Shown: positions 641 through 42,739 of the stretch, piece by piece
Numbering within the stretch: position 1 is the stretch's first letter
Layout of the letters: each line of letters opens with the position of its first letter
Assembly (NCBI GenBank): GCA_000466585.1
Contig: KE993461.1
Location: 1-46,851 of the forward strand
From: Clostridiales bacterium oral taxon 876 str. F0540
GTDB lineage: Bacteria > Bacillota > Clostridia > Clostridiales > Clostridiaceae
Reading direction: 5' to 3'
DNA length: 46,851 bases
Program-made: the position numbers and the translations under genes
Notes under the pieces: generated by a model
What the model saw: the letters and a program-made list of their open reading frames with translations, nothing else
Told to the model about the DNA's origin: nothing
Database searches by the model: none

Positions 641-1114
641 TTAATCTTCTTTTTCTTCTTTATTTTCTTGTTTTATATCCTTATGGTCCTTATCTTTATG
701 GTCCTTAAATTCTCCATCCCATTTTGAAATCTTCTCTTTCATATTGGTTTTTATTTCTTCACCTTTTTCTTTGGTTATCTTGCCTTCTTTTACTTTCTCA
801 TCAATTGCTGCAGTTTTATTTTTTATTATCATATCTTTTGCCTGCTGTTCATTAAATCCCTTTTGTTTAGCAAGCTCAAAAAAGTTTTTACCGGATTGTC
901 TTGCTTCCTTCATTTCTTCCTTAGTAATACCCATTTCTTTAGCGGCCCTAAACATGCCTCCATGGTGTCCGCTCTTTTCCTTTTGCTCTTTCATTTCAAC
1001 CTTTTTCTCCGGCTGGCTTGGCATATCCGCTGCTGGTAATACTGCTGCATGTACGCTGACTCCTGTGCTTACAGAAACTGCAACCAGTAAGGCAGCTAAG
1101 CTCTTTAGTTTCAT
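641..1114 (-). CDS. Secreted Lys/Glu-rich protein with an N-terminal signal peptide and His-containing motifs (SGHHGG, DHKDKDHKD); DUF2680-like.
   Basis: There is a hydrophobic signal sequence (MKLKSLAALLVAVSVSTGVSVHA), the composition is strongly charged, and a GGAGG RBS lies 7 nt upstream. Confidence 0.55.
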   Translation of the reverse strand: MKLKSLAALLVAVSVSTGVSVHAAVLPAADMPSQPEKKVEMKEQKEKSGHHGGMFRAAKEMGITKEEMKEARQSGKNFFELAKQKGFNEQQAKDMIIKNKTAAIDEKVKEGKITKEKGEEIKTNMKEKISKWDGEFKDHKDKDHKDIKQENKEEKED

Positions 1115-1120
1115 GTAGAT

Positions 1121-1296
1121 TCCTCCTTTTAGTCGGAAGCACTGAGTAATTTAATACTCTCGCTCCGCTCAAAAATTACTCGTTAAAGGTCATTTAGACC
1201 TTTAACCTCCTTTTAGTCGGAAGCACTGAGTAATTAAAGATTACTCGCTTCCGCTCGCTAATTGCCGTAAAAGTCACATTTAGGACTTTAGCCTCA
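1121..1296 (-). repeat. Two tandem units of a dispersed 5'-leader repeat, read on the minus strand. Each unit ends ...CAGTGCTTCCGACTAAAAGGAGG, and the proximal unit supplies the RBS of the 641-1114 gene.
   Basis: The two units are near-identical direct repeats of about 85 nt (TTTTAGTCGGAAGCACTGAGTAATT...). They contain a hairpin GGTCTAAATGACC or GTCCTAAATGTGAC plus AGCGAG motifs, and they are homologous to 20137-20340 and 42536-42617. Confidence 0.6.
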
Positions 1297-5408: not shown

Positions 5409-5645
5409 TTATATACATTTAACACTATGGGTTCTAAATTCATTATTCTTTAAAAAGGCAGCAGACAATATATTTTCTTTTCTAAACCCCCTGTTTTCTT
5501 TCCTTAAGTAACAATATGCCTTAATTCTGTCTCCTGTTAATTCCAATACTCTTATGTTTCTCATCGTAATCTCATTACCCTTTAAATACACTATAGTTAT
5601 TATTAAATTCCTCTCTAGTGAAGCCTTTAAAATATGTTCAAACAT
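5409..5645 (-). CDS. Small WYL-like domain protein of about 78 aa.
   Basis: The motif AYCYLRKENRGFRKENI resembles the WYL-domain core (WYL...RxFRLDRI). The start is set at the ATG after GAAGGTGGG. Confidence 0.35.
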   Translation of the reverse strand: MFEHILKASLERNLIITIVYLKGNEITMRNIRVLELTGDRIKAYCYLRKENRGFRKENILSAAFLKNNEFRTHSVKCI

Positions 5646-5802
5646 ATTACCCACCTTCTTTCTACATAAATTTCAAAGTAAATCTGCTATTTGAGTTTCG
5701 CAAAACCTGAAGAAGCATCAGAGTTTTACTCGCTCAAATAGCGATTTACTAGTTGAAACTATATATATTATAACTCGAACTTATGTTCGTGTCAATTGTA
5801 TA

Positions 5803-12071: not shown

Positions 12072-12108
12072 CAGGCAGAGGAATAACACCTCTGCCAATT
12101 ATTTTTCC
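12072..12108 (+). terminator. Rho-independent terminator (GGCAGAGG/CCTCTGCC plus a T-run).
   Basis: The inverted repeat is seen directly. Confidence 0.65.
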
Positions 12109-12199
12109 TCTATATACAATTCAAAAGTTCTAATATATTAATGATGTACTAAAAATCCTTGAAGATTGGATATTTTATGACATCATTAATACAAGGACT

Positions 12200-14455
12200 T
12201 TACTGCATTGTATTTAGCTTCCAGCTAAAACTATTGTCTTTAACATTCTTTACATATTGTAAGATTCCAACATCTTTAAGTTCAATACTTCCATCTTTCA
12301 ATAGTTTTTTCACCATAGTCTTTGTAAGTTTTTTATTAATAGATTTTAAAAAGTCGTCTTCCTTCCATATTACGAACTTGCATCCGTTCTTCCAGTTGCT
12401 GCAGCCAAATCCTCTCTGCCCCTCGATAATAGGATGCCCGCATATAGGACATTTTCCAAAGGTCTCAACTTTAGTTTTTTCATCAGAGCTTTGGTTCTTA
12501 TCAGTTGTATCTTTTTTCACCCTTGTCTTTTTATCCTTATTTTCTTTGTCAGATATTTTTCTATCTTCTAAAGCTGAATTTTTATTAGCGTAAGCTTTGG
12601 CCTTTTCAGAACAATCTTTTAATATAATAGGCTTATCTTTTTTTATGTTCTCAACAGACTTGCTTACAAATTCGAAAACAAGCTTTAAAAAATCCTGCTT
12701 ATTAAATTTTTCCTTTTCTATATCTGATAGAGTCTTTTCAAGTCTTCCTGTGTACTCCAAATCAAATAGCTCTTTTATTGGAAAGTTCTCAACTATCTTT
12801 CTTCCTAAATCCGTACAAATAAGTGATTTATCCTTGCTGTATATGTAGCCTATATCCTTAAGCTTCTTGATAGTTTCTGCTCTTGTTGCCGGAGTACCGA
12901 TGCTAAAGCCGCTTAGTATTGCAGCCATCATTTCATTGCTGTCTTCCTCCTCAAACTTCTTGCCGCAGGTTTCCATTACCCTTAGTAAGGTCTTTTCAAT
13001 ATGGTGCTTTGGAGGAGTGGTTTTATGCGAGGTTATTTTTAAAGCAACAAGCTGAACCGGTTCATTGATATTTACAAATGGAAGGATAACATCCTTTGAT
13101 TCAATTCTCTCTATCTTTTTCCACCCTTCAATAATCTGAACCTTGCCTTTTGATACAAATACTCCTTCACAAAAGGCATCATTTATTCTTGTCGTTATCT
13201 TAGTTTCTTCAGCCTCAGCTACAGGCATAAATTGAGCAATAAATCTATTTTTAATTGCATTGTATACAATTGCTTCATCGCTTGAAAGAGTTTTGGGAAG
13301 AATATAGGTAGGTATAATAGCACTGTGGCTTTCTACCTTTGAATTATCAAATACTCTTTTTGTTACTTTAAAGTGTATCTCGTCTTCAAAGGGCAGTCCT
13401 CTCTTTAAAAGCTTTAATACTTCTTCAGCCTTTCCTGAAAGACTTTCTTCCAGTACAGAACTTGCTGTTCTTGGATAGGTAATATGCTTTTTCTCATATA
13501 AGCCTTGAGCTACAGTAAGCACCTTGTCAGAGGTCCAACCTTTGTTTTTGCTTGTTATATATCCCTGAAGATTTGATAAATTAAACAGAAACGGAGGATA
13601 TTCTTTTTTCTTTTCCACCTCTTTATCTACTATAACACCACTCTTGCCCTTTAAATTTTTTAGAACTTCTTCAAGGTCTTTTTTAACACTAAACTTTTCT
13701 TCACCTTTTAGTGTATAGGTACCTTCGTATTCTTCATTTTTTTCAGTCTTAAAGGTTCCCTGAAGCTTGAAGTAATCATTTGGAACAAAGCTTTCAACTT
13801 CCTTGTCTCTATCGTATATAATTTTAAGAGTAGGAAGTATAACTCTTCCAATGTTTAAAGGCTTTCCCATACCTCTTTGATATTTTAAAGTAGCCACAGA
13901 GGTCAAATTAATTCCTATAACCCAATCTGCCCACTGTCTGCTTATTCCTGAATCTTGCATTGGTTTCATCAAATCATTGGGTTTAAGTTTATTAAGACCA
14001 GCCAAAACTTCCTTTGGTGTCCATTCATTAAGGAGAAGCCTGTATATAGGCTTACTCACCCTTAAATATTTTAATATTATATCACCGATAATCTGACCTT
14101 CTCTATCATAATCACAGGCAGAAATAACTGCTTCTACATCATCTCTGCTTATAAGATACTTGATTATATTAATTTGCTTATCAGCGCCGCTGTCTTTTTT
14201 ATTTCTGTCCCCTGAAGCACTTTTAACCTTATATTTAAACCTCTGTGGAATAAAAGGAAACTTCTCCATTCTCCATCCGGCCATATTAGGATCGTAGTCC
14301 TTGGCATCATAAAGCTGAAGTAAATGTCCAAAGGCCCAGGTTACAATATAATCCTGTCCTTCAAGATATCCATCTTTTCGTAATTTTATATTTAAAGCCT
14401 CAGCTATATTTTTTGCAACGCTTGGTTTTTCCGCTATTATAACTTTTTTACCCAC
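12200..14455 (-). CDS. topB: DNA topoisomerase III.
   Basis: A Toprim N-terminus (KKVIIAEKPSVAKNIAEAL), a type IA core and a C-terminal zinc ribbon (CPICGHPIIEGQRGFGCSNWKNGCKF) are present. Confidence 0.9.
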   Translation of the reverse strand: MGKKVIIAEKPSVAKNIAEALNIKLRKDGYLEGQDYIVTWAFGHLLQLYDAKDYDPNMAGWRMEKFPFIPQRFKYKVKSASGDRNKKDSGADKQINIIKYLISRDDVEAVISACDYDREGQIIGDIILKYLRVSKPIYRLLLNEWTPKEVLAGLNKLKPNDLMKPMQDSGISRQWADWVIGINLTSVATLKYQRGMGKPLNIGRVILPTLKIIYDRDKEVESFVPNDYFKLQGTFKTEKNEEYEGTYTLKGEEKFSVKKDLEEVLKNLKGKSGVIVDKEVEKKKEYPPFLFNLSNLQGYITSKNKGWTSDKVLTVAQGLYEKKHITYPRTASSVLEESLSGKAEEVLKLLKRGLPFEDEIHFKVTKRVFDNSKVESHSAIIPTYILPKTLSSDEAIVYNAIKNRFIAQFMPVAEAEETKITTRINDAFCEGVFVSKGKVQIIEGWKKIERIESKDVILPFVNINEPVQLVALKITSHKTTPPKHHIEKTLLRVMETCGKKFEEEDSNEMMAAILSGFSIGTPATRAETIKKLKDIGYIYSKDKSLICTDLGRKIVENFPIKELFDLEYTGRLEKTLSDIEKEKFNKQDFLKLVFEFVSKSVENIKKDKPIILKDCSEKAKAYANKNSALEDRKISDKENKDKKTRVKKDTTDKNQSSDEKTKVETFGKCPICGHPIIEGQRGFGCSNWKNGCKFVIWKEDDFLKSINKKLTKTMVKKLLKDGSIELKDVGILQYVKNVKDNSFSWKLNTMQ

Positions 14456-17990: not shown

Positions 17991-18096
17991 TTGTGGCAGC
18001 GGAATGCGATAAATGCACCGCAGCTTTTTAAAGCTTTCGTCTAGCGGCAACTTCCCGTCCAACTAGCACTTGACGCACATTTATCTACTCTGCCCT
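17991..18096 (-). promoter_or_regulatory. THF (tetrahydrofolate) riboswitch in the folT leader.
   Basis: The minus-strand sequence GGGCAGAGUAGAUAAAUGUGCGUCAAGUG...GACGAAAGC...GCGGUGCAUUUAUCGCAUUCCGCUGCC matches the conserved blocks of the folT motif (AGAGUAG, GCGUnAAGUG, ACGAAGC, GCGGUG...GCAUCCGCU). Confidence 0.8.
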
Positions 18097-18912: not shown

Positions 18913-19125
18913 ATAATCCTGCCTTTCAATTTATTATTAAATTTATAATAATTATTCCCAATCTTACTATACGCTTATACGATTTTAAGTCTAAGTATCA
19001 TTGCAGTTATTTATAATAAGTATTAATATTAATTATAGTACAATACATTTGTAGATTAAACGCATAAATTATGTTTGAAAATAATCGAAATTTCATTGCC
19101 AGGTGTTTTGAGGAAGGTGAAAATA

Positions 19126-20136
19126 ATGAATTCTCTTCAAATTAAAGAGAAGCTTAATTCAAAAGATTATGATTTTATAAGGCTCAACAAAAGCCTCGGG
19201 AAGAATATAATTCTTTTAACTACAGGCGGTTCACATGCTTATGGTACTAATACAGCTAACAGCGATTTAGACATTAGAGGTATAACTCTAAACTCTGCTA
19301 AAGAAATACTTACCATGAATTATAATGATAAACCTATAGAAGACCGCCCTACCGATACAGTTATATACTTTTTAAAGCAAATAATTTCTCTTCTTCTAAA
19401 TTGTAATCCAAATACTATAGAAATACTTGGTATAAAAGAGGAACATCTTTTTGTTTGCACTGAAGAAGGAAGGCTTTTAAGAGACAATGCTGATTTATTC
19501 CTTTCAAAAAAAGCTGCTGCAAGCTTTGGTGGTTATGCTATAGCTCAGCTTAGAAGACTTCAAAACGCTCTTGCCAGAGACAGCTATCCGCAGAAAGAAA
19601 AAGAAAAGCATATATTAAGCAGTATCCAAAAACAGCTTCTTACCCTGCCAGAAAGATATAAAGATATTACAAGCGGGTCGCTTAATTTATATTTAGATTT
19701 ATCTATGAAGGAGGGCTTTGACGAAGAAATATTTATGGATATAACCTTAAAGCACTATCCCCTTAGAGATTTCAAAAATATATACTCTGATATGAATAAT
19801 GTTCTAAAGGATTATGATAAGCTTAATCATAGGAACAGCAAAAAGGATGAACTTCATCTTAATAAACACGCCATGCATCTTATACGCCTCTTAATTATGG
19901 GTAAAGAAATACTTGAAGGTAAAGGAATTCATACTTACAGAGAAAAAGAAATAGCTCTTTTAATGGATATAAGAAATGGCAATTTTAATTACAATGATAT
20001 ATTTGAAATGGTTGATAAATTTGATAAAGAATTTAAATATGCTGCTGAAAATACCATTTTACCTGATGAACCTGACTATGACGGGGTTCAGGAATTACTA
20101 ATTCAAATTAATAAGAAAGTAATTAAAAATATTTAA
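19126..20136 (+). CDS. Predicted nucleotidyltransferase of the Pol-beta superfamily (RlaP/YcgL-like).
   Basis: The motif GGSHAYGTNTANSDLDIRG matches the GS...DxD nucleotidyltransferase signature. The start is placed at MNSLQ, after a GAAGGTGA RBS. Confidence 0.6.
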   Translation: MNSLQIKEKLNSKDYDFIRLNKSLGKNIILLTTGGSHAYGTNTANSDLDIRGITLNSAKEILTMNYNDKPIEDRPTDTVIYFLKQIISLLLNCNPNTIEILGIKEEHLFVCTEEGRLLRDNADLFLSKKAAASFGGYAIAQLRRLQNALARDSYPQKEKEKHILSSIQKQLLTLPERYKDITSGSLNLYLDLSMKEGFDEEIFMDITLKHYPLRDFKNIYSDMNNVLKDYDKLNHRNSKKDELHLNKHAMHLIRLLIMGKEILEGKGIHTYREKEIALLMDIRNGNFNYNDIFEMVDKFDKEFKYAAENTILPDEPDYDGVQELLIQINKKVIKNI

Positions 20137-20340
20137 GGAGGTAAAAGTCCTAAATGGACTTTTACGGGCAGACTAGCGAGTGATAACGAGCGAGTTCAGG
20201 CTGCCCCGTGGAGTCCTAAATGGACTTTTACGGGCAATTAGCGAGCGGGAGCGAGGTTAATGTCCTAAATGGGCTTCGACGGGTACTCTGCGAATGAAAA
20301 TGAGTGCTCTAGAGTACCCAGTGTTTCGAGTTAAAGGAGG
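20137..20340 (+). repeat. Three tandem units (about 70-80 nt each) of the dispersed 5'-leader repeat. They end CAGTGTTTCGAGTTAAAGGAGG, 6 nt before the MazG-like start codon.
   Basis: The hairpin GTAAAAGTCCTAAATGGACTTTTAC occurs twice, with AGCGAG motifs. The region is homologous to 1121-1296 (opposite orientation) and 42536-42617. Confidence 0.6.
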
Positions 20341-20346
20341 AAACTT

Positions 20347-20673
20347 ATGAATTTTAAAGAATACACAGAAAACATGAAAAGAACTGCAGGCAACCTTGAG
20401 CTTACAAATGAGAACTTATGCTGGAGTGCCATGGGCATTTCCGGGGAGGCTGGAGAAGTAACAGATTACCTTAAAAAGGTAGTTTTTCATTGTCATGAAT
20501 TAAATAAAGAAAAACTTGCAGAGGAACTCGGTGATGTACTTTGGTATCTAGCTTCTACTGCTGAAATAATCGGCTACAGCCTTGAGGAAATTGCTGAAAT
20601 GAATATAGAAAAATTAAAGAAAAGATATCCTGAAGGCTGGGATGTAGAAAGAAGTATAAATAGAGACAGATAA
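20347..20673 (+). CDS. Small MazG-like nucleoside-triphosphate pyrophosphohydrolase (all-alpha NTP-PPase).
   Basis: The protein is 108 aa and carries the motifs EAGEVTDYLKK and EELGDVLWYLA, which are typical of the MazG / dimeric dUTPase-like fold. Confidence 0.65.
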   Translation: MNFKEYTENMKRTAGNLELTNENLCWSAMGISGEAGEVTDYLKKVVFHCHELNKEKLAEELGDVLWYLASTAEIIGYSLEEIAEMNIEKLKKRYPEGWDVERSINRDR

Positions 20674-23049: not shown

Positions 23050-25321
23050 TATGTCTGCGTTAAACCATCCTGATTATGAAAACGAACAAGAATATCTTAA
23101 CTACACTCTCCAGTATGCAAGAAACTACAATAATCGCATTCTTTCTGAGAAAGAAAGAATTGCAAAAGATGTAGATTACGGAGTAAAGCATTATAACTCT
23201 GATAATGCTGAACAATTCAATGATCTCATTATTAATAGTACTCTTTTAGAAAACATGAAGCAAAAGCTTAACAATTTAAAAAGAGCCTGCTCAAAACCCT
23301 ACTTCGCACGTGTTGATTTTATTGAAGACAACTCGAGACTTCAAAAGCTTTATATTGGGAAAATGGCACTTTTAAGAGATGAGGATAACGAACCGATTGT
23401 ACTTGATTGGCGCTCCCCTGCTGCAAACCTTTATTATGAGGGAAGAATTGGAGATGCCTATTATAACTGCCCAGAAGGCAAAATAAATGGGGAACTTCGC
23501 TTGAAAAGACAATACTCAATAGAGGATTCCTGTCTGCAGGAAATATATGATATAGATATAACAACAAACGATGACTTTCTTCAAGCCTGCCTTAATTCCA
23601 GTAAGGATAACAGGTTAAAGGATATTGTCTCAACCATTCAGTCGGAGCAGAACAAAGTCATAAGGGCTGATATGTGGAAGCCTCTGATAGTACAGGGTGC
23701 TGCCGGAGGGGGAAAGACCACAATAGCTCTTCATAGAATTGCCTATCTTCTTTATAATTATGAAAAATCTTTCAGCCCCCAAAACTTTATGATTATAGCA
23801 CCAAACAAATTTTTTCTAAGCTATATTTCGGAGGTACTTCCTGAGCTTGGAGTAGAAAATGTAAAACAAACTACCTTTGAAGATTTTGCTATTGATACTA
23901 TAGGTCAAAAATTTAAAATAATAGATCCTCATGAAAAGCTGTCAAAGCTCATATGCCTCTCAAAAGACAGCAATTTGATTAAAGAGTCTTCAAGCTTTAA
24001 ATCTTCAATAAAGTTTAAAGATTTAGTTGAAAAGTATATGAGAAAAATTGAAGAAAGTTTTATTCCTGAGGGTGATTTTAAAGTATCCAGTTTCACAATA
24101 ATAAGTTCTTCAGAACTGAAAAGATTATTTCTTGAAGAATATTCATATCTTCCTTTGATAAAGAGGCTAGATGAAATCAAAAAAAATCTTATCAATACTC
24201 TAAAACGAAAAAAACCAGAAATAATAGAAAACATAATCTTTGAATACGAAAGTCAGCTTGAAGATATCCGATATGAAATGAAAGACTGTGAAGAAAGACG
24301 CCGGCTTATAATAGATATTACTAATAAGAGAGAAGCCTTAATTGAAAAGGTAAAGAAACATTCAAAAACCGTTGTAAGAGAATACTTATCTAAATTTTCC
24401 CCACTAAATACTATAGAATATTATAAAAACTTTCTACGAGATAAAGAGTTCAGTGATAGTCAAATCAAAAATTATATTGATGAACAATCCTGGAACTACC
24501 TGTCACAATCTACTGTATCAAATCTTCAGTCCGGATATGCAGAGCTTGAGGATCTTGCTCCATTAATGCTTATAAAGACTTTTGTTTACGGACTTGAGGA
24601 TAAATTAAAGGTAAGACATATAATAATCGATGAAGCTCAGGATTTTAGTTTATTTCAGCTACATGTGCTTAAAAGGATACTAAACAGTTCTTCTTTTACA
24701 ATACTTGGGGATCTTTGCCAAGGAATTCATTCTTATAGAGGTATAAGCAACTGGGATAATGTATTAGACACTATTTTTAAGGAAGATTCACCCAATTTTT
24801 TATGTCTTGAACAAAGCTATAGAACTACTATAGAAATAATGGAAGCTGCATCTACTGTAATAGAAAGTCTTAAAGATTCAAATCTGCCCTCAGCTAAGCC
24901 TGTAATTAGACATGGTGATAAAGTTGAGCTTATTGTCAAAAGTTCTCTTGATGATATATGTATATCTATAAAAGAAAACTTACAAATTATGAACAGCAAA
25001 AGCTATAAATCAGCCGCAATAATTTGCAAAAGCATGGATGAATGTATAAGAATGAAAGGCTTATTAAAAGGTCTTAAAATATCTGCTAAAGTAATTAACG
25101 GAAATGAAAAGGAGTACAGCGGAGGTATTGTTATTGTTCCTACTTACCTAGTTAAAGGACTTGAATTTGATATGGTTATAATAGCCAATGCCTCTAAAAC
25201 GCAATTTACATTTAATGAACTTGATGCAAAGCTTCTATATGTAGCTATGACAAGACCACTTCACAAGCTTTACATTTATTCCTGCGGTGAACAGTCTGAA
25301 ATGCTCAAATTCCTGCTATAG
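23050..25321 (+). CDS. helD: HelD / helicase IV-like superfamily-1 (UvrD-type) helicase.
   Basis: Walker A (QGAAGGGKTTIALHRIAYL), UvrD-like C-terminal motifs (VIIDEAQDFS, ...YVAMTRPLHKLYIY) and an N-terminal HelD-like domain are present. Confidence 0.75.
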
Positions 25322-25438
25322 TAAAAGGATTTGCCTCAAAACTACTAAGGCTAACTGTAAAAACTAAATTTTTATAAAATTAAAACATCACAAATTATGC
25401 TTAAGCTGTTTTGAGGCTTACCCATTATTTTTGTTTCA

Positions 25439-26302
25439 TCAGCTTCCGGTTATTGTTCCTCCATTTACATGAATAACCTGTCCTGTCACATAGGATGAAT
25501 CCTCCGAAGCTAAATAAACATATGCAGGTGCCAACTCATAAGGCTGCCCTGCTCGTTTCATAGGTGTATCTGACCCAAAAGAAACAACCTTATCTGAACT
25601 ATAACTTGATACTATGAGTGGAGTCCAAATTGGTCCAGGTGCAACTGCATTTACGCGAATTCCTTTGTCTACAACTGACAAAGATAGTGATCGAGTAAAA
25701 GTAACAATTGCACCCTTTGTTGATGAATAGTCTATAAGCTCCTTATTGCCTTCATAGGCAGTAACAGATGCTGTATTTATTATAGAACTTCCCCTCTTCA
25801 GATAAGGCATAACAAATCTAACCAAATAAAACATAGGGAAAATATTTATTTTAAATGTCAGCTCTAGTTGCTCTGCAGTTATGCACTCTATGCTTGGCTG
25901 CGGAAACTGAACCCCTGCATTATTAACCAGTATATCAATCTTTCCTAATTCCTCTATAGTAGTTTTGATTATTTTTTTACAATTATCTTCTTTTGAAATA
26001 TCGCCTTTTATCAAAATACATTTAGCACCCTGTCTTTCAACATATTGCTTTGTTTCTTCAGCATCTACATCCTCATATAAATAAGAAATGACTATATCAG
26101 CACCTTCTTTAGCAAAGGCAACTGCAACCGCTCTTCCAATACCGCTGTCGCCTCCTGTTATTACAGCAACTTTGTTTTTTAGCTTTCCGCTTCCTTTGTA
26201 CTCAGGATTATCAAAAATCGGTCTGGGTTTCATAATAGCTTCTATACCCGGCTGGATCTCCTGGTGCTGTGGTGGAAAAGGCGGTCCTAAGTACTTTTTC
26301 AT
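25439..26302 (-). CDS. SDR-family oxidoreductase (YhdF/YdaD general-stress-type short-chain dehydrogenase).
   Basis: The Rossmann motif AVITGGDSGIGRAVA and the NNAG and YxxxK motifs are present. The start is placed at MKKYLGPP, after a GGAGGA RBS. Confidence 0.8.
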   Translation of the reverse strand: MKKYLGPPFPPQHQEIQPGIEAIMKPRPIFDNPEYKGSGKLKNKVAVITGGDSGIGRAVAVAFAKEGADIVISYLYEDVDAEETKQYVERQGAKCILIKGDISKEDNCKKIIKTTIEELGKIDILVNNAGVQFPQPSIECITAEQLELTFKINIFPMFYLVRFVMPYLKRGSSIINTASVTAYEGNKELIDYSSTKGAIVTFTRSLSLSVVDKGIRVNAVAPGPIWTPLIVSSYSSDKVVSFGSDTPMKRAGQPYELAPAYVYLASEDSSYVTGQVIHVNGGTITGS

Positions 26303-26364
26303 AAAGTCCTCCATTTAAATTAGTTCTATTAACCATATTATGAATAAGTAATATTTAAGTTACA

Positions 26365-34282: not shown

Positions 34283-34555
34283 ATGAATAATAAACTTACT
34301 GAAAAAGACTTAATGCATGACTTACTTGCAACAGAAAAACAGGTTATATCTTCCTATAGTACCGGAATAACCGAAACATCTTGTCCAAATCTTAGAAACA
34401 CATTGGTATCAAACTTTAAAAATGCTCAAGATACTCAATATAAAGTATTTGACGCTATGAGACAAAAAGGCTGGTATGCTGTTAAGGATGCAGCTGATGA
34501 AGAAGTTCAAAAAGCTAAAGATGATGCTAACACAATGATGAATGAATTGAAATAA
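34283..34555 (+). CDS. Spore coat protein F-like (Coat_F domain) protein.
   Basis: The pattern DLMHDLLATEKQVISSY...ETSCPNLRN...MRQKGWY matches the Coat_F domain signature. A GGAGGG RBS and a strong terminator are present. Confidence 0.6.
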   Translation: MNNKLTEKDLMHDLLATEKQVISSYSTGITETSCPNLRNTLVSNFKNAQDTQYKVFDAMRQKGWYAVKDAADEEVQKAKDDANTMMNELK

Positions 34556-36611: not shown

Positions 36612-36852
36612 AACGTAAAGAAAGCCTTGAGCATACACTCAAGGCTTTTAAGCACGCAAATAAACAATCATCGTGTTAAATCCACTGAATGATAGCTCTC
36701 CACAAGAAACTTGTGACAGTTTTGCATATATTCTATGCAGAACCAGCTGTACAATCTTAAAGCATCGATTGTACGCTTCGGCGATTTTTCCTTTCCTTTT
36801 GCTTCTTTGTGCTTTCCTCCGCAAAAGTACTATTAAAAACCGCGCCTCTATC
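36612..36852 (-). promoter_or_regulatory. Lysine riboswitch (L-box) with an intrinsic terminator (36621-36648).
   Basis: The minus-strand blocks match the L-box: UAGAGGCGCGG..., GGAGGAAAG, UCGCCGAAGCG, GCUGGUUCUGCAUAGAAUAUAUGCAAAACUGUCACAAG and UGGAGAGCUAUC. Compare the B. subtilis lysC leader (AGAGGUGC, CGCCGAAGC, GCUGGCCGUGCAUUGAAUAAAUGUAAGGCUGUCAAG, GGAGGGCUAUC). Confidence 0.85.
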
Positions 36853-36921
36853 CTAGCTATTTACTTTTATCTTACTTGTATTATTATGCAATAAAACTTT
36901 AGTTTAGTCAAGAGTTAAATC

Positions 36922-41790: not shown

Positions 41791-42531
41791 TTACAGCATT
41801 CCTCCATCTACCGTAATAATTTGCCCAGTTATATAACTTGCTTCATCGCTTGCCAAAAATGCAGTTAACTTTCCAATATCCTCTCCCGTACCAAACCTCA
41901 TCATAGGAATTTCCTGAAGAAGTTCTTCTCTATCCTCCGTAGTAAGCCAGCTGTTCATTTCAGTATCTATTACACCTGGAGCTATTGCGTTTACTCTTAT
42001 ATTGCTGAGGGCCATCTCCTTTGCCAGAGCTTTTGTAAAACTATTTACCCCTCCTTTAGCTGCTGAATATATAGCTTCACAGGAAGCTCCCGCATTCCCC
42101 CATATGGAAGATATATTTATTATACATCCGCTCTTTCGGTATGACATATGTTTAAGAGAATAATAACAGCAATTTATTACTCCATTTAAATCTGTATTCA
42201 AAAGGCTGGACCATTCCTCTTCTTTCATGTCCATAAATAATCCTACCTTTGATATCCCAGCATTATTTACTAAAATATCTATCTTTCCGATCTTATAAAT
42301 GATTGTCTCTATCATATTTTTAACTTCATTATAGGAGCTTACATCACCCTTAACAATAATTCCAAAACCACCATTATCTTTTATTATTTTTAATGTCTCA
42401 ATAGCCCCTTCTTCGTTATTATTGTAGTTTACAGCTACTACAGCACCTGCTTTGGAGAGCTCTACCGCTATACTTCTGCCAATACCTCTTGAAGCACCTG
42501 TAACTAGAGCTGTTTTGCCTGCTAATTTCAT
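41791..42531 (-). CDS. SDR-family oxidoreductase, FabG-like 3-oxoacyl-ACP reductase.
   Basis: The motifs TALVTGASRGIGRSIA, NNAGI and the S-Y-K triad are present, and the length (246 aa) fits. Confidence 0.8.
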   Translation of the reverse strand: MKLAGKTALVTGASRGIGRSIAVELSKAGAVVAVNYNNNEEGAIETLKIIKDNGGFGIIVKGDVSSYNEVKNMIETIIYKIGKIDILVNNAGISKVGLFMDMKEEEWSSLLNTDLNGVINCCYYSLKHMSYRKSGCIINISSIWGNAGASCEAIYSAAKGGVNSFTKALAKEMALSNIRVNAIAPGVIDTEMNSWLTTEDREELLQEIPMMRFGTGEDIGKLTAFLASDEASYITGQIITVDGGML

Positions 42532-42535
42532 AACT

Positions 42536-42617
42536 TTCTCCTTTCAGTCGAGACACTGGAAGTCTTATAATGCTCCGTTCCCATGACTCCCGTTAATGCC
42601 CAGTTTAGGCTTCAACC
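42536..42617 (-). repeat. Single unit of the dispersed 5'-leader repeat. It ends CAGTGTCTCGACTGAAAGGAG, 7 nt before the FabG-like start codon.
   Basis: The minus strand reads GAAGCCTAAACTGGGCATTAACGGG...CCAGTGTCTCGACTGAAAGGAG. This aligns with unit C of 20137-20340 (GTCCTAAATGGGCTTCGACGGG...CCAGTGTTTCGAGTTAAAGGAGG). Confidence 0.5.
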
Positions 42618-42739
42618 TCTTTTCTGTACAAATATAATTCTAATTAGAATTTTAGCATAAATAAAAAACTAATTAAATTAAAATATCCTACAGAAATGAT
42701 TTTATTAACATTCTATAGGATATTTTTTAAATTATTTTA

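Follow-up and report, generated by a model that had tools for sequence, protein, structure and literature searches.

A structured repeat that donates Shine-Dalgarno sequences and is probably mobile resides in ribosome-binding sites of a Clostridium clade

Why should homologous segments of intergenic DNA stand directly in front of the start codons of three unrelated genes? The question is raised by a stretch of 46,851 nucleotides (nt) from Clostridiales bacterium oral taxon 876 str. F0540 (GenBank assembly GCA_000466585.1, contig KE993461.1, positions 1 to 46,851; hereafter the window, meaning this whole stretch), in which a preliminary description had pointed out three such loci (hereafter loci 1, 2 and 3) and proposed that they carry a structured, non-coding repeat that supplies each gene with its Shine-Dalgarno (SD) sequence. 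The comparisons reported here suggest that the repeat is probably a non-coding, structured, non-autonomous and SD-donating mobile element, resident in the ribosome-binding sites (RBSs) of a clade of Clostridium sensu stricto.

The three loci are borne out by alignment, by an nhmmer search of the window with a family profile and by a covariance model (CM) run with filters off and scoring every position. The profile finds six homologous units, all at these loci and none elsewhere in the window (E from 1.5e-20 to 5.5e-9), and the covariance model gives five matches at E <= 1e-7, all within the same loci, with the next-best match at E = 0.33. Each array ends in an SD with the start codon close behind, as had been described (7, 6 and 6 nt after GGAGG, GGAGG and GGAG at loci 1, 2 and 3, respectively), and a second SD-like GAGG or GGAGG lies ahead of each array. 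The three genes encode, as proposed, a lysine- and glutamate-rich (K/E-rich) protein, which has no Pfam match and is identical to HMPREF1982_04620 of the same strain, a MazG-domain protein and a short-chain dehydrogenase/reductase (SDR). About 7% of the genes in the window (3 of roughly 45) carry the repeat.

Two details of the preliminary description need revision. The single conserved 3′ block that it gave is present (chance expectation of the pattern, 0.01), but a 1-nt insertion or deletion separates two subtypes of it, and the SD within it is GGAGG at loci 1 and 2 but GGAGA, not GGAGG, at locus 3. Loci 1 and 3 do hold two units and one unit, but locus 2 is not a plain tandem triplet: unit 2a is an SD-less core, unit 2b breaks off after the AGCGAG of its second stem, and unit 2c starts exactly there. 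Unit 2a is ~97% identical to its ortholog in Clostridium rhizosphaerae, and the 3′ strand of the second stem of 2b, lost in the window, persists beyond the inner unit in the C. rhizosphaerae locus L054. Read against this ortholog, window units 2b and 2c are the remnant of a nested arrangement that is still intact there.

An alignment of 110 distinct full units yields a consensus fold. Downstream of a flanking GGAGG, each unit consists of a first hairpin (P1), a single C, a second hairpin (P2), CAGUG, a short third element and AAAGGAG(G/A). P1 has 9 base pairs (bp) and the loop UAAAU; P2 has 9 bp, a 5-6 nt bulge on the 3′ side, 2 bp, a tandem G·A/A·G, 2 bp and a G-N-(N)-A loop, and the AGCGAG motif remarked on earlier is its apical part. 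The unpaired CAGUG and the P1 loop are invariant. Standard pairs fill 97.1% of the cells of the specified structure compared with 84.8% in shuffles, cells changed on both sides number 390 compared with 98, and compensatory changes occur at 18 of the 26 pairs; in a control with partners slid by 1-3 columns, pairing falls to 31-49%. Covariation strongly backs the two hairpins, and the compensatory changes and second stem first seen at the window loci hold throughout the family. The fold is conserved, and a protein-coding remnant is rejected on the strength of these compensatory changes and of stop codons in several frames of P1. Counted per pair, G·U (98) exceeds A·C (21) on the sense strand, indicating that this is the strand that folds; such a fold fits RNA, and sense-strand single-stranded DNA fits as well.

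The third element separates the subtypes. In subtype A the 3′ block reads CAGUG(C/U)UUCCGACUAAAAGGAGG and the element is CUUCC or UUUCC, which can pair with the SD. The block of subtype B reads CAGUGUUUCGAGU(G/U)AAAGGAG, with a UUUC-GAGU-GAAA hairpin just 5′ of the SD, and nested or SD-less units carry CCC-GAA-GGG, CAC-GAA-GUG, GUC-GAA-GAC or GUC-GCAA-GAC instead. RNAalifold predicts an SD-masking helix, UU(C/U)C:GGAG, for which pairing is possible in 98.4% of cells; this third helix (P3, or anti-SD) shows no covariation in the unit alignment, and single-sequence folds are ambiguous on SD masking. Readings of P2 or P1 as a K-turn, a CsrA site or an ANTAR motif were rejected, as the bulge, GGA motif or hexaloop concerned is not conserved.

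All three frames are closed by stop codons within P1 in 51% of units, compared with 3.9% of composition-matched shuffles. The P1 loop also holds an ATG, conserved in 96% of units and placed 12 nt beyond the left SD; it opens a mini open reading frame (mini-ORF) of 5-12 codons that ends in P2 (for example at window positions 1183-1205 on the minus strand and 20142-20164 on the plus strand). The residues that it would encode shift with P1 covariation; the mini-ORF is thus probably not a conserved peptide, and a leader peptide of the erm/cat attenuation type was rejected.

Beyond the window the family was sampled twice. One scan of representative genomes, with a pattern needing only CTAAA, CAGTG and AAAGGAG, gave at least 84 stretches, in which a profile search finds, among the matches listed, at least 161 units in at least 97 arrays (51 single, 29 double, 16 triple and 1 quadruple). 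Most of these listed matches are in C. rhizosphaerae, and the others include C. carboxidivorans P7, C. drakei, C. muellerianum, C. aciditolerans, C. manihotivorum, C. sulfidigenes, two Candidatus Clostridium species, several metagenome-assembled genomes and six chance matches in unrelated phyla. Because this pattern itself included the SD, metagenomes were sampled with a pattern taken from P1 only, which gave 66 loci with 79 arrays. Both samples together hold at least ~290 units in ~175 arrays, all from related Clostridium genomes and metagenomes. Units are ~85 nt long (range 68-90; SD-less cores 68-69 nt), arrays comprise 1-6 units in tandem or nested, and dispersed copies are mostly 80-90% identical, the most similar ~98%. 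No copies were found in plasmid, phage and viral-contig collections. The family fragments short-read assemblies, with Logan contigs ending inside the repeat at the window MazG gene (L001, 1-190) and on the contig that carries an 88%-identical ortholog of the locus 1 gene (L086, 1-30).

Position relative to genes was scored by whether an SD and an ORF start (ORFs of 50 codons or more) follow no further than 30 nt from the array end. In the P1-selected sample 66 of 72 evaluable arrays pass and one more has its start at 31-65 nt; in the genome sample, among the matches listed, 88 of 93 pass. Most failing arrays precede the SD and ATG of shorter ORFs or the gene grdA, the latter failing because its frame is interrupted by a selenocysteine UGA. 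Units are always oriented sense to the downstream gene in both samples. Since the sample drawn by P1 only is start-codon bound as well, the association is a property of the family rather than an artefact of selection, and copies scattered without regard to start codons, the outcome that would have spoken for an ordinary dispersed repeat, are not what either sample contains. Arrays end in AAAGGAG(G/A), 5-11 nt before the start codon, indicating that the last unit supplies the working SD. Among the few copies away from an RBS is a truncated unit (P1 and part of P2) at 5581-5628 of the C. aciditolerans stretch L078, which occupies the loop of a long inverted repeat (AGCTTCAGATGGAG ... CTCCATCTGAAGC), has no start codon beside it and possibly lies within another repeat or a terminator.

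The left side of the arrays carries an SD of a different origin. The 5 nt before P1 of the first unit read GGAGG in 106 of 147 arrays (72%) and xGAGG in 80%. Twenty-one upstream ORFs of at least 100 codons cross this left SD and stop at a TAA within P1, so that the P1 TAA codons terminate ORFs reading through the old SD, and in five more the stop codon overlaps it; this left SD is therefore the host operon's own, with the unit beginning right after it. Pairs of orthologous sites with and without the repeat (empty/filled pairs) agree with this, the sequence to the left of the array corresponding to what stands upstream of the SD at the empty site. Internal junctions between units all read GGAGG followed by P1. 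For 49 of 163 arrays (some 30%) an upstream ORF on the same strand lies no more than 30 nt from the array start; being operon-internal, such arrays must be transcribed and cannot be terminators.

Orthologous sites show that the RBS-resident family is gained, lost, expanded, nested and exchanged. In the grd operon of C. carboxidivorans units precede grdA and neither trx nor grdB, Ca. C. stratigraminis shows the reverse pattern, and three RBSs thus differ between the two. Orthologs of the locus 1 gene carry the element at 88% identity and a plain RBS at 57% and 51%; the window gene at 34283 has a plain RBS where a relative carries two units, and three further empty/filled ortholog pairs were found. 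At one locus three SD-less cores in C. rhizosphaerae correspond to six in a 91%-identical relative, and several arrays contain identical adjacent units. In six metagenome loci the apical loop of an outer P2 contains a complete second unit, which stands directly after CGAG and is still enclosed by the paired halves of the outer stem; in C. rhizosphaerae L054 and L012 and in window units 2b/2c the insertion follows the second AGCGAG. Units are also replaced at orthologous sites with their flanks retained. The C. rhizosphaerae locus L049 lacks a five-unit array found in a relative (L115) with flanks 97% identical and retains 4 nt of P1, TTAA, which points to a deletion through AG microhomology, after which the old SD serves again as RBS. 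Together with the RBS association, presence and absence at orthologous RBSs and tandem, nested and replaced units support the earlier suggestion of a dispersed, SD-carrying mobile element.

We infer that the units spread by orientation-specific insertion beside GGAG(G)-like sites, which would comprise the SDs of genes, the SD that ends a resident unit and the CGAG in the P2 loop. Insertion aimed in this way would account for the RBS niche, as GGAGG in this genome of 32% G+C occurs mostly at RBSs, for the fixed orientation, for tandem growth, because each unit ends in a new target, and for nesting, because CGAG lies in the P2 loop. The units would persist through a low cost to translation, as they stop upstream ORFs, fold compactly and replace the SD at native spacing; with these stops and the new SD in place an insertion would be nearly harmless. 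Weak masking of the SD, or guidance of targeting, may be the role of the conserved anti-SD (UUCC or UUUC), and the repeat may have a secondary regulatory effect on translation or mRNA stability.

Several observations weigh against such a mobile repeat. No clean recent insertion with identical flanks occurs among the empty/filled pairs: the best pair, with 97% flanks, is the deletion just described, and the others are too diverged to fix boundaries. The similarity of the copies gives no hint of a recent burst, and part of the turnover could be the work of gene conversion or recombination. On the right, the exact boundary is ambiguous, as the nucleotides after the terminal GGAG correlate with subtype. 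These read GAA in 48 of 50 subtype A arrays (8% in background RBSs of the same loci) and AAA in 32 of 41 subtype B arrays (3.6% in background RBSs); at two pairs of orthologous sites the subtype differs and the spacer is kept (L078 and L156, GGAG-A-AAAAGGTGATG and GGAG-G-AAAAGGTGATG; window and L054, both ...GGAGGAAACTTATG). The alignments therefore leave it ambiguous whether the boundary would lie at GGAG or 1-3 nt further, and a preference for GGAGGAA-type targets is possible, given that 4 of 8 empty sites carry this sequence. Neither a transposase nor an autonomous partner came to light, a tblastn search with an IS200 TnpA query giving no match in 1.16 Mb of sampled loci, which is a weak test. 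Lastly, at the MazG locus units are 97% identical between species compared with 86% for the flanking coding DNA, and some units are 96.8% identical between C. rhizosphaerae and C. manihotivorum; units better conserved than their flanks would hint at selection on function rather than pure selfishness.

The last point leads to the strongest rival, a cis-acting RNA device that spread by selection for its function. The repeat would then be a portable leader whose anti-SD masks the SD until released by temperature, a protein or a global signal, or a relic SD with hairpins that stabilises or insulates the mRNA. The compensatory changes that keep the fold, the tolerance of G·U on the sense strand, the 98.4% conservation of the anti-SD pairing, the RNA-like tandem G·A pairs and G-N-(N)-A loop, and the units that outdo neighbouring coding DNA in conservation all speak for it, and the left SD without a start codon resembles a STAB-SD stabiliser, of the kind reportedly present in the Bacillus thuringiensis cryIIIA leader. 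However, the downstream genes share no common function. The 91 downstream proteins are essentially unrelated to one another (by their N-termini atpD-, recR-, mnmG-, deoD-, asnS-, grdA- and glgC-like proteins, transporters and others), which excludes a regulon, and a ligand-specific riboswitch was rejected on the same ground despite the conserved fold. Moreover, P3 lacks covariation, the UUUC of subtype B pairs better with the GAAA upstream of the SD, leaving the SD free, and SD-less cores and nested copies follow no obvious regulatory logic. An RNA device is therefore a serious but clearly less probable reading.

The favoured mobile repeat may also be pictured more specifically as an SD-homing element, in which the anti-SD acts as a guide, pairs with GGAG(G)AA-type targets in single-stranded DNA or RNA and steers the oriented insertion of ready-made three-frame stops and an SD, with the arrays doubling as tunable modules of translation or stability whose copy number varies among strains. 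We offer this version tentatively, as a conjecture that may well be wrong.

If the repeat were derived from IS200/IS605, a hairpin-recognising Y1 HUH transposase would carry it as single-stranded DNA to a site 3′ of GGAG or GGAGG, and its own 3′ GGAGG would re-create the target and thereby build tandem arrays. IS200/IS605 elements insert 3′ of a 4-5 nt target, and strand-specific insertion directly 3′ of a motif of this length is what the repeat displays, together with conservation of structure rather than sequence, nesting at GAG in a hairpin loop and an anti-SD subtype that co-varies, guide-like, with the junction nucleotides. Convincing terminal inverted repeats are likewise missing: none is conserved by eye, and with the right end TTTTAGTCG reverse-complemented, the left end TTAAAGTCC agrees with it at 6 of 9 positions (subtype A) or 5 of 9 (subtype B), the ends being A/T-rich. 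GGAGG flanks the repeat on both sides, the left copy varying (TGAGG, AGAGG, GAAGG) and the right one constant, a pattern that would fit a native SD plus an element SD equally well as a decayed target-site duplication. On the other hand, P1 lies 0-1 nt after the target, too close for an IS608-like guide to fit in between. IS608-type elements have end hairpins that are alike and stand some way off the cleavage sites, whereas P1 and P2 are unlike each other. TnpA went undetected in the search above, and one of the three window arrays runs against replication: GC skew is negative throughout the window, making the minus strand the leading strand, with loci 1 and 3 co-directional and locus 2 opposite. 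We regard an IS200/IS605 derivative as unlikely. A small intron-like or self-processing RNA element, whose excision between GGAG|G junctions would restore one SD, is suggested by the identical junction sequences around every unit and by the invariant CAGUG and UAAAU, and is highly improbable, as the known ribozyme families give no match even at E <= 10, excision would be superfluous given an SD that works at native spacing, and ~85 nt is far below the size of known self-splicing introns.

The features of the three loci are collected below.

Table 1. Repeat units, SD sequences and start codons at the three window loci, in transcriptional order within each locus.
Feature	Position	Strand	Details
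Locus 1 relic or native SD, GAGG	1292..1295	-	Directly 5′ of first unit; sequence reading
Unit 1a (P1 hairpin, P2 stem, CAGUG, CUUCC)	1206..1291	-	nhmmer E = 8.7e-20; CM 37.8 bits
Unit 1a internal SD, GGAGG	1206-1210	-	
Unit 1b, subtype A	1122..1205	-	nhmmer E = 1.5e-20; CM 112 bits, E = 4.9e-26
Unit 1b working SD, GGAGG	1122-1126	-	
Locus 1 gene ATG	1112..1114	-	ORF 641-1114, 157 aa, secreted, K/E-rich; 7 nt after SD
Locus 2 native SD, GGAGG	20137..20141	+	Directly after stop (20134-20136) of upstream ORF 19075-20136
Unit 2a, P1+P2 core without SD, end CCCCGUGG	20142..20211	+	nhmmer E = 2.9e-12; CM 74.5 bits
Unit 2b, truncated, part of P1 and P2 5′ strand to AGCGAGCGGGAGCGAG	20212..20255	+	nhmmer E = 5.5e-9, model positions 13-56
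Unit 2c, B-like tail, inserted after AGCGAG of unit 2b	20256..20340	+	nhmmer E = 3.8e-19; CM 92 bits
Unit 2c working SD, GGAGG	20336-20340	+	
Locus 2 gene ATG	20347..20349	+	MazG-domain gene 20347-20673; 6 nt after SD
Locus 3 relic SD, AGAGG	42616..42620	-	Directly 5′ of unit 3
Unit 3, divergent, single	42537..42615	-	nhmmer E = 3.7e-9; CM 65 bits
Unit 3 SD, GGAGA	42537-42541	-	Predicted fold: its GAGA can pair with UCUC
Locus 3 gene ATG	42529..42531	-	SDR/FabG-like gene 41791-42531; 6 nt after GGAG

The window holds further elements of its own. Two ordinary known riboswitches lie well above their Rfam gathering thresholds, a tetrahydrofolate (THF) riboswitch at 17995-18094 (minus strand, 89 bits) and a lysine riboswitch at 36685-36858 (minus strand, 126 bits). 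The 5′ leader of an 81-aa ORF (5409-5654) forms a long, imperfect hairpin at 5662-5764 in the minus-strand reading (AAATCGCTATTTGAGCGAG...CTCAAATAGCAGATTT). It reaches no Rfam gathering threshold, shares 84-86% identity with two unlinked loci of C. rhizosphaerae (L049 5690-5794 and L073 5344-5446) and seems to be a second dispersed repeat of the leader type, different from the first. At 12097-12216, between convergent ORFs, lies a third repeat, also dispersed and intergenic, which is 81-88% identical to three unlinked C. rhizosphaerae loci (L073, L022 and L059). About 1 kb with an SDR gene (25321-26363; gene 25439-26314, minus strand) is missing from the collinear C. rhizosphaerae stretch L054, which is 86-89% identical to the window on either side.

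If the repeat is what we propose, it occupies a new ecological niche for selfish DNA and constitutes a natural portable RBS cassette. Small bacterial repeats are usually scattered between genes or 3′ of them, and residence in the RBS sets this one apart. It could shape translation efficiency, operon coupling and mRNA stability throughout a clade that includes the industrial syngas fermenters C. carboxidivorans and C. drakei, and it can mislead the annotation of start codons and RBSs. Its strongly covarying fold, in which tandem G·A pairs are joined by G-N-(N)-A loops, also makes it a good candidate for a new Rfam family.

How, then, does the repeat compare with what is known? No Rfam 15 family matches it at the gathering threshold, the lysine and THF riboswitches being the only such matches in the window, and at E <= 10 nothing above noise appears at the loci (NsiR9 reaches 14.6 bits, its threshold being 90). 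Keyword and literal-sequence searches of the searchable literature returned no description of it and brought up MAEB and TD-1 alone as analogues. Among mobile elements, it resembles classical MITEs (miniature inverted-repeat transposable elements, derivatives of DDE transposons) in being small, non-coding and multi-copy with insertion polymorphism, and differs from them in its want of convincing terminal inverted repeats. With palindrome-associated transposable elements (PATEs) of the IS200/IS605 type it shares sense-only insertion directly 3′ of a 4-5 nt target (P1 abuts GGAGG, and nested units follow CGAG); the dissimilarity of P1 and P2 distinguishes it. Like PATEs and REP/REPIN sequences, which lack classical inverted repeats or target duplications, it is non-autonomous, hairpin-based and strand-specific. 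Yet REP, BIME and REPIN are palindromes of 20-40 nt, mostly 3′ of genes and often in inverted pairs, whereas the repeat is 68-90 nt long, lies 5′ of start codons and is always direct (sense). Unlike integron attC sites, it stands 5′ of ordinary chromosomal genes and has no GTTRRRY core. Correia elements of Neisseria and the ERIC/IRU sequences of enterobacteria are transcribed intergenic mobile repeats that fold in the mRNA and can alter the expression or stability of their neighbours. The likeness to these MITEs lies in small size, mobility and transcribed intergenic location; they have terminal inverted repeats and TA duplications, occur in either orientation and show no RBS specificity.

Closer parallels are found among modular structured repeats. 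BOX elements consist of boxA-boxB(n)-boxC modules with a variable number of middle tandem copies, have a predicted fold and are transcribed with neighbouring genes; we know of no BOX element nested in a defined loop. They are short, non-coding, multi-copy intergenic repeats of Streptococcus pneumoniae (PMC3049150). The repeat is likewise modular, multi-copy and non-coding, with variable tandem number, a predicted fold and transcription, but BOX elements are not confined between SD and start and supply no SD, and their sequence and structure are unrelated. MAEB of Burkholderia and TD-1 of Treponema denticola are multi-copy structured motifs, mostly in 5′ regulatory positions, covarying and of unknown function; MAEB comprises 2-12 tandem hairpins with conserved linkers and is biased towards primary-metabolism genes, and the TD-1 motif precedes many unrelated genes (Weinberg et al. 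2007, PMC1950547). Both are, like the repeat, multi-copy structured 5′ motifs, MAEB being tandem and TD-1 preceding unrelated genes. Their sequences and folds differ, however, their Rfam models give no match to the repeat, and they are not described as SD-supplying, relic-SD flanked or nested. The U/C-rich tract of the repeat (UUCC/UUUC), which can pair with GGAG, recalls SD-masking RNA thermometers (fourU, ROSE), in which a weak helix over the SD melts with temperature, and an SD-like sequence without a start codon upstream in the leader recalls STAB-SD stabilisers; these are single-locus leaders rather than dispersed mobile families, and the pairing here is without covariation. None of the compared systems joins residence between a relic SD and a start codon, SD donation, three-frame stops and nesting in a defined loop. 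The repeat belongs among the bacterial interspersed structured repeats, and there is a real chance that its targeting mechanism is categorically new.

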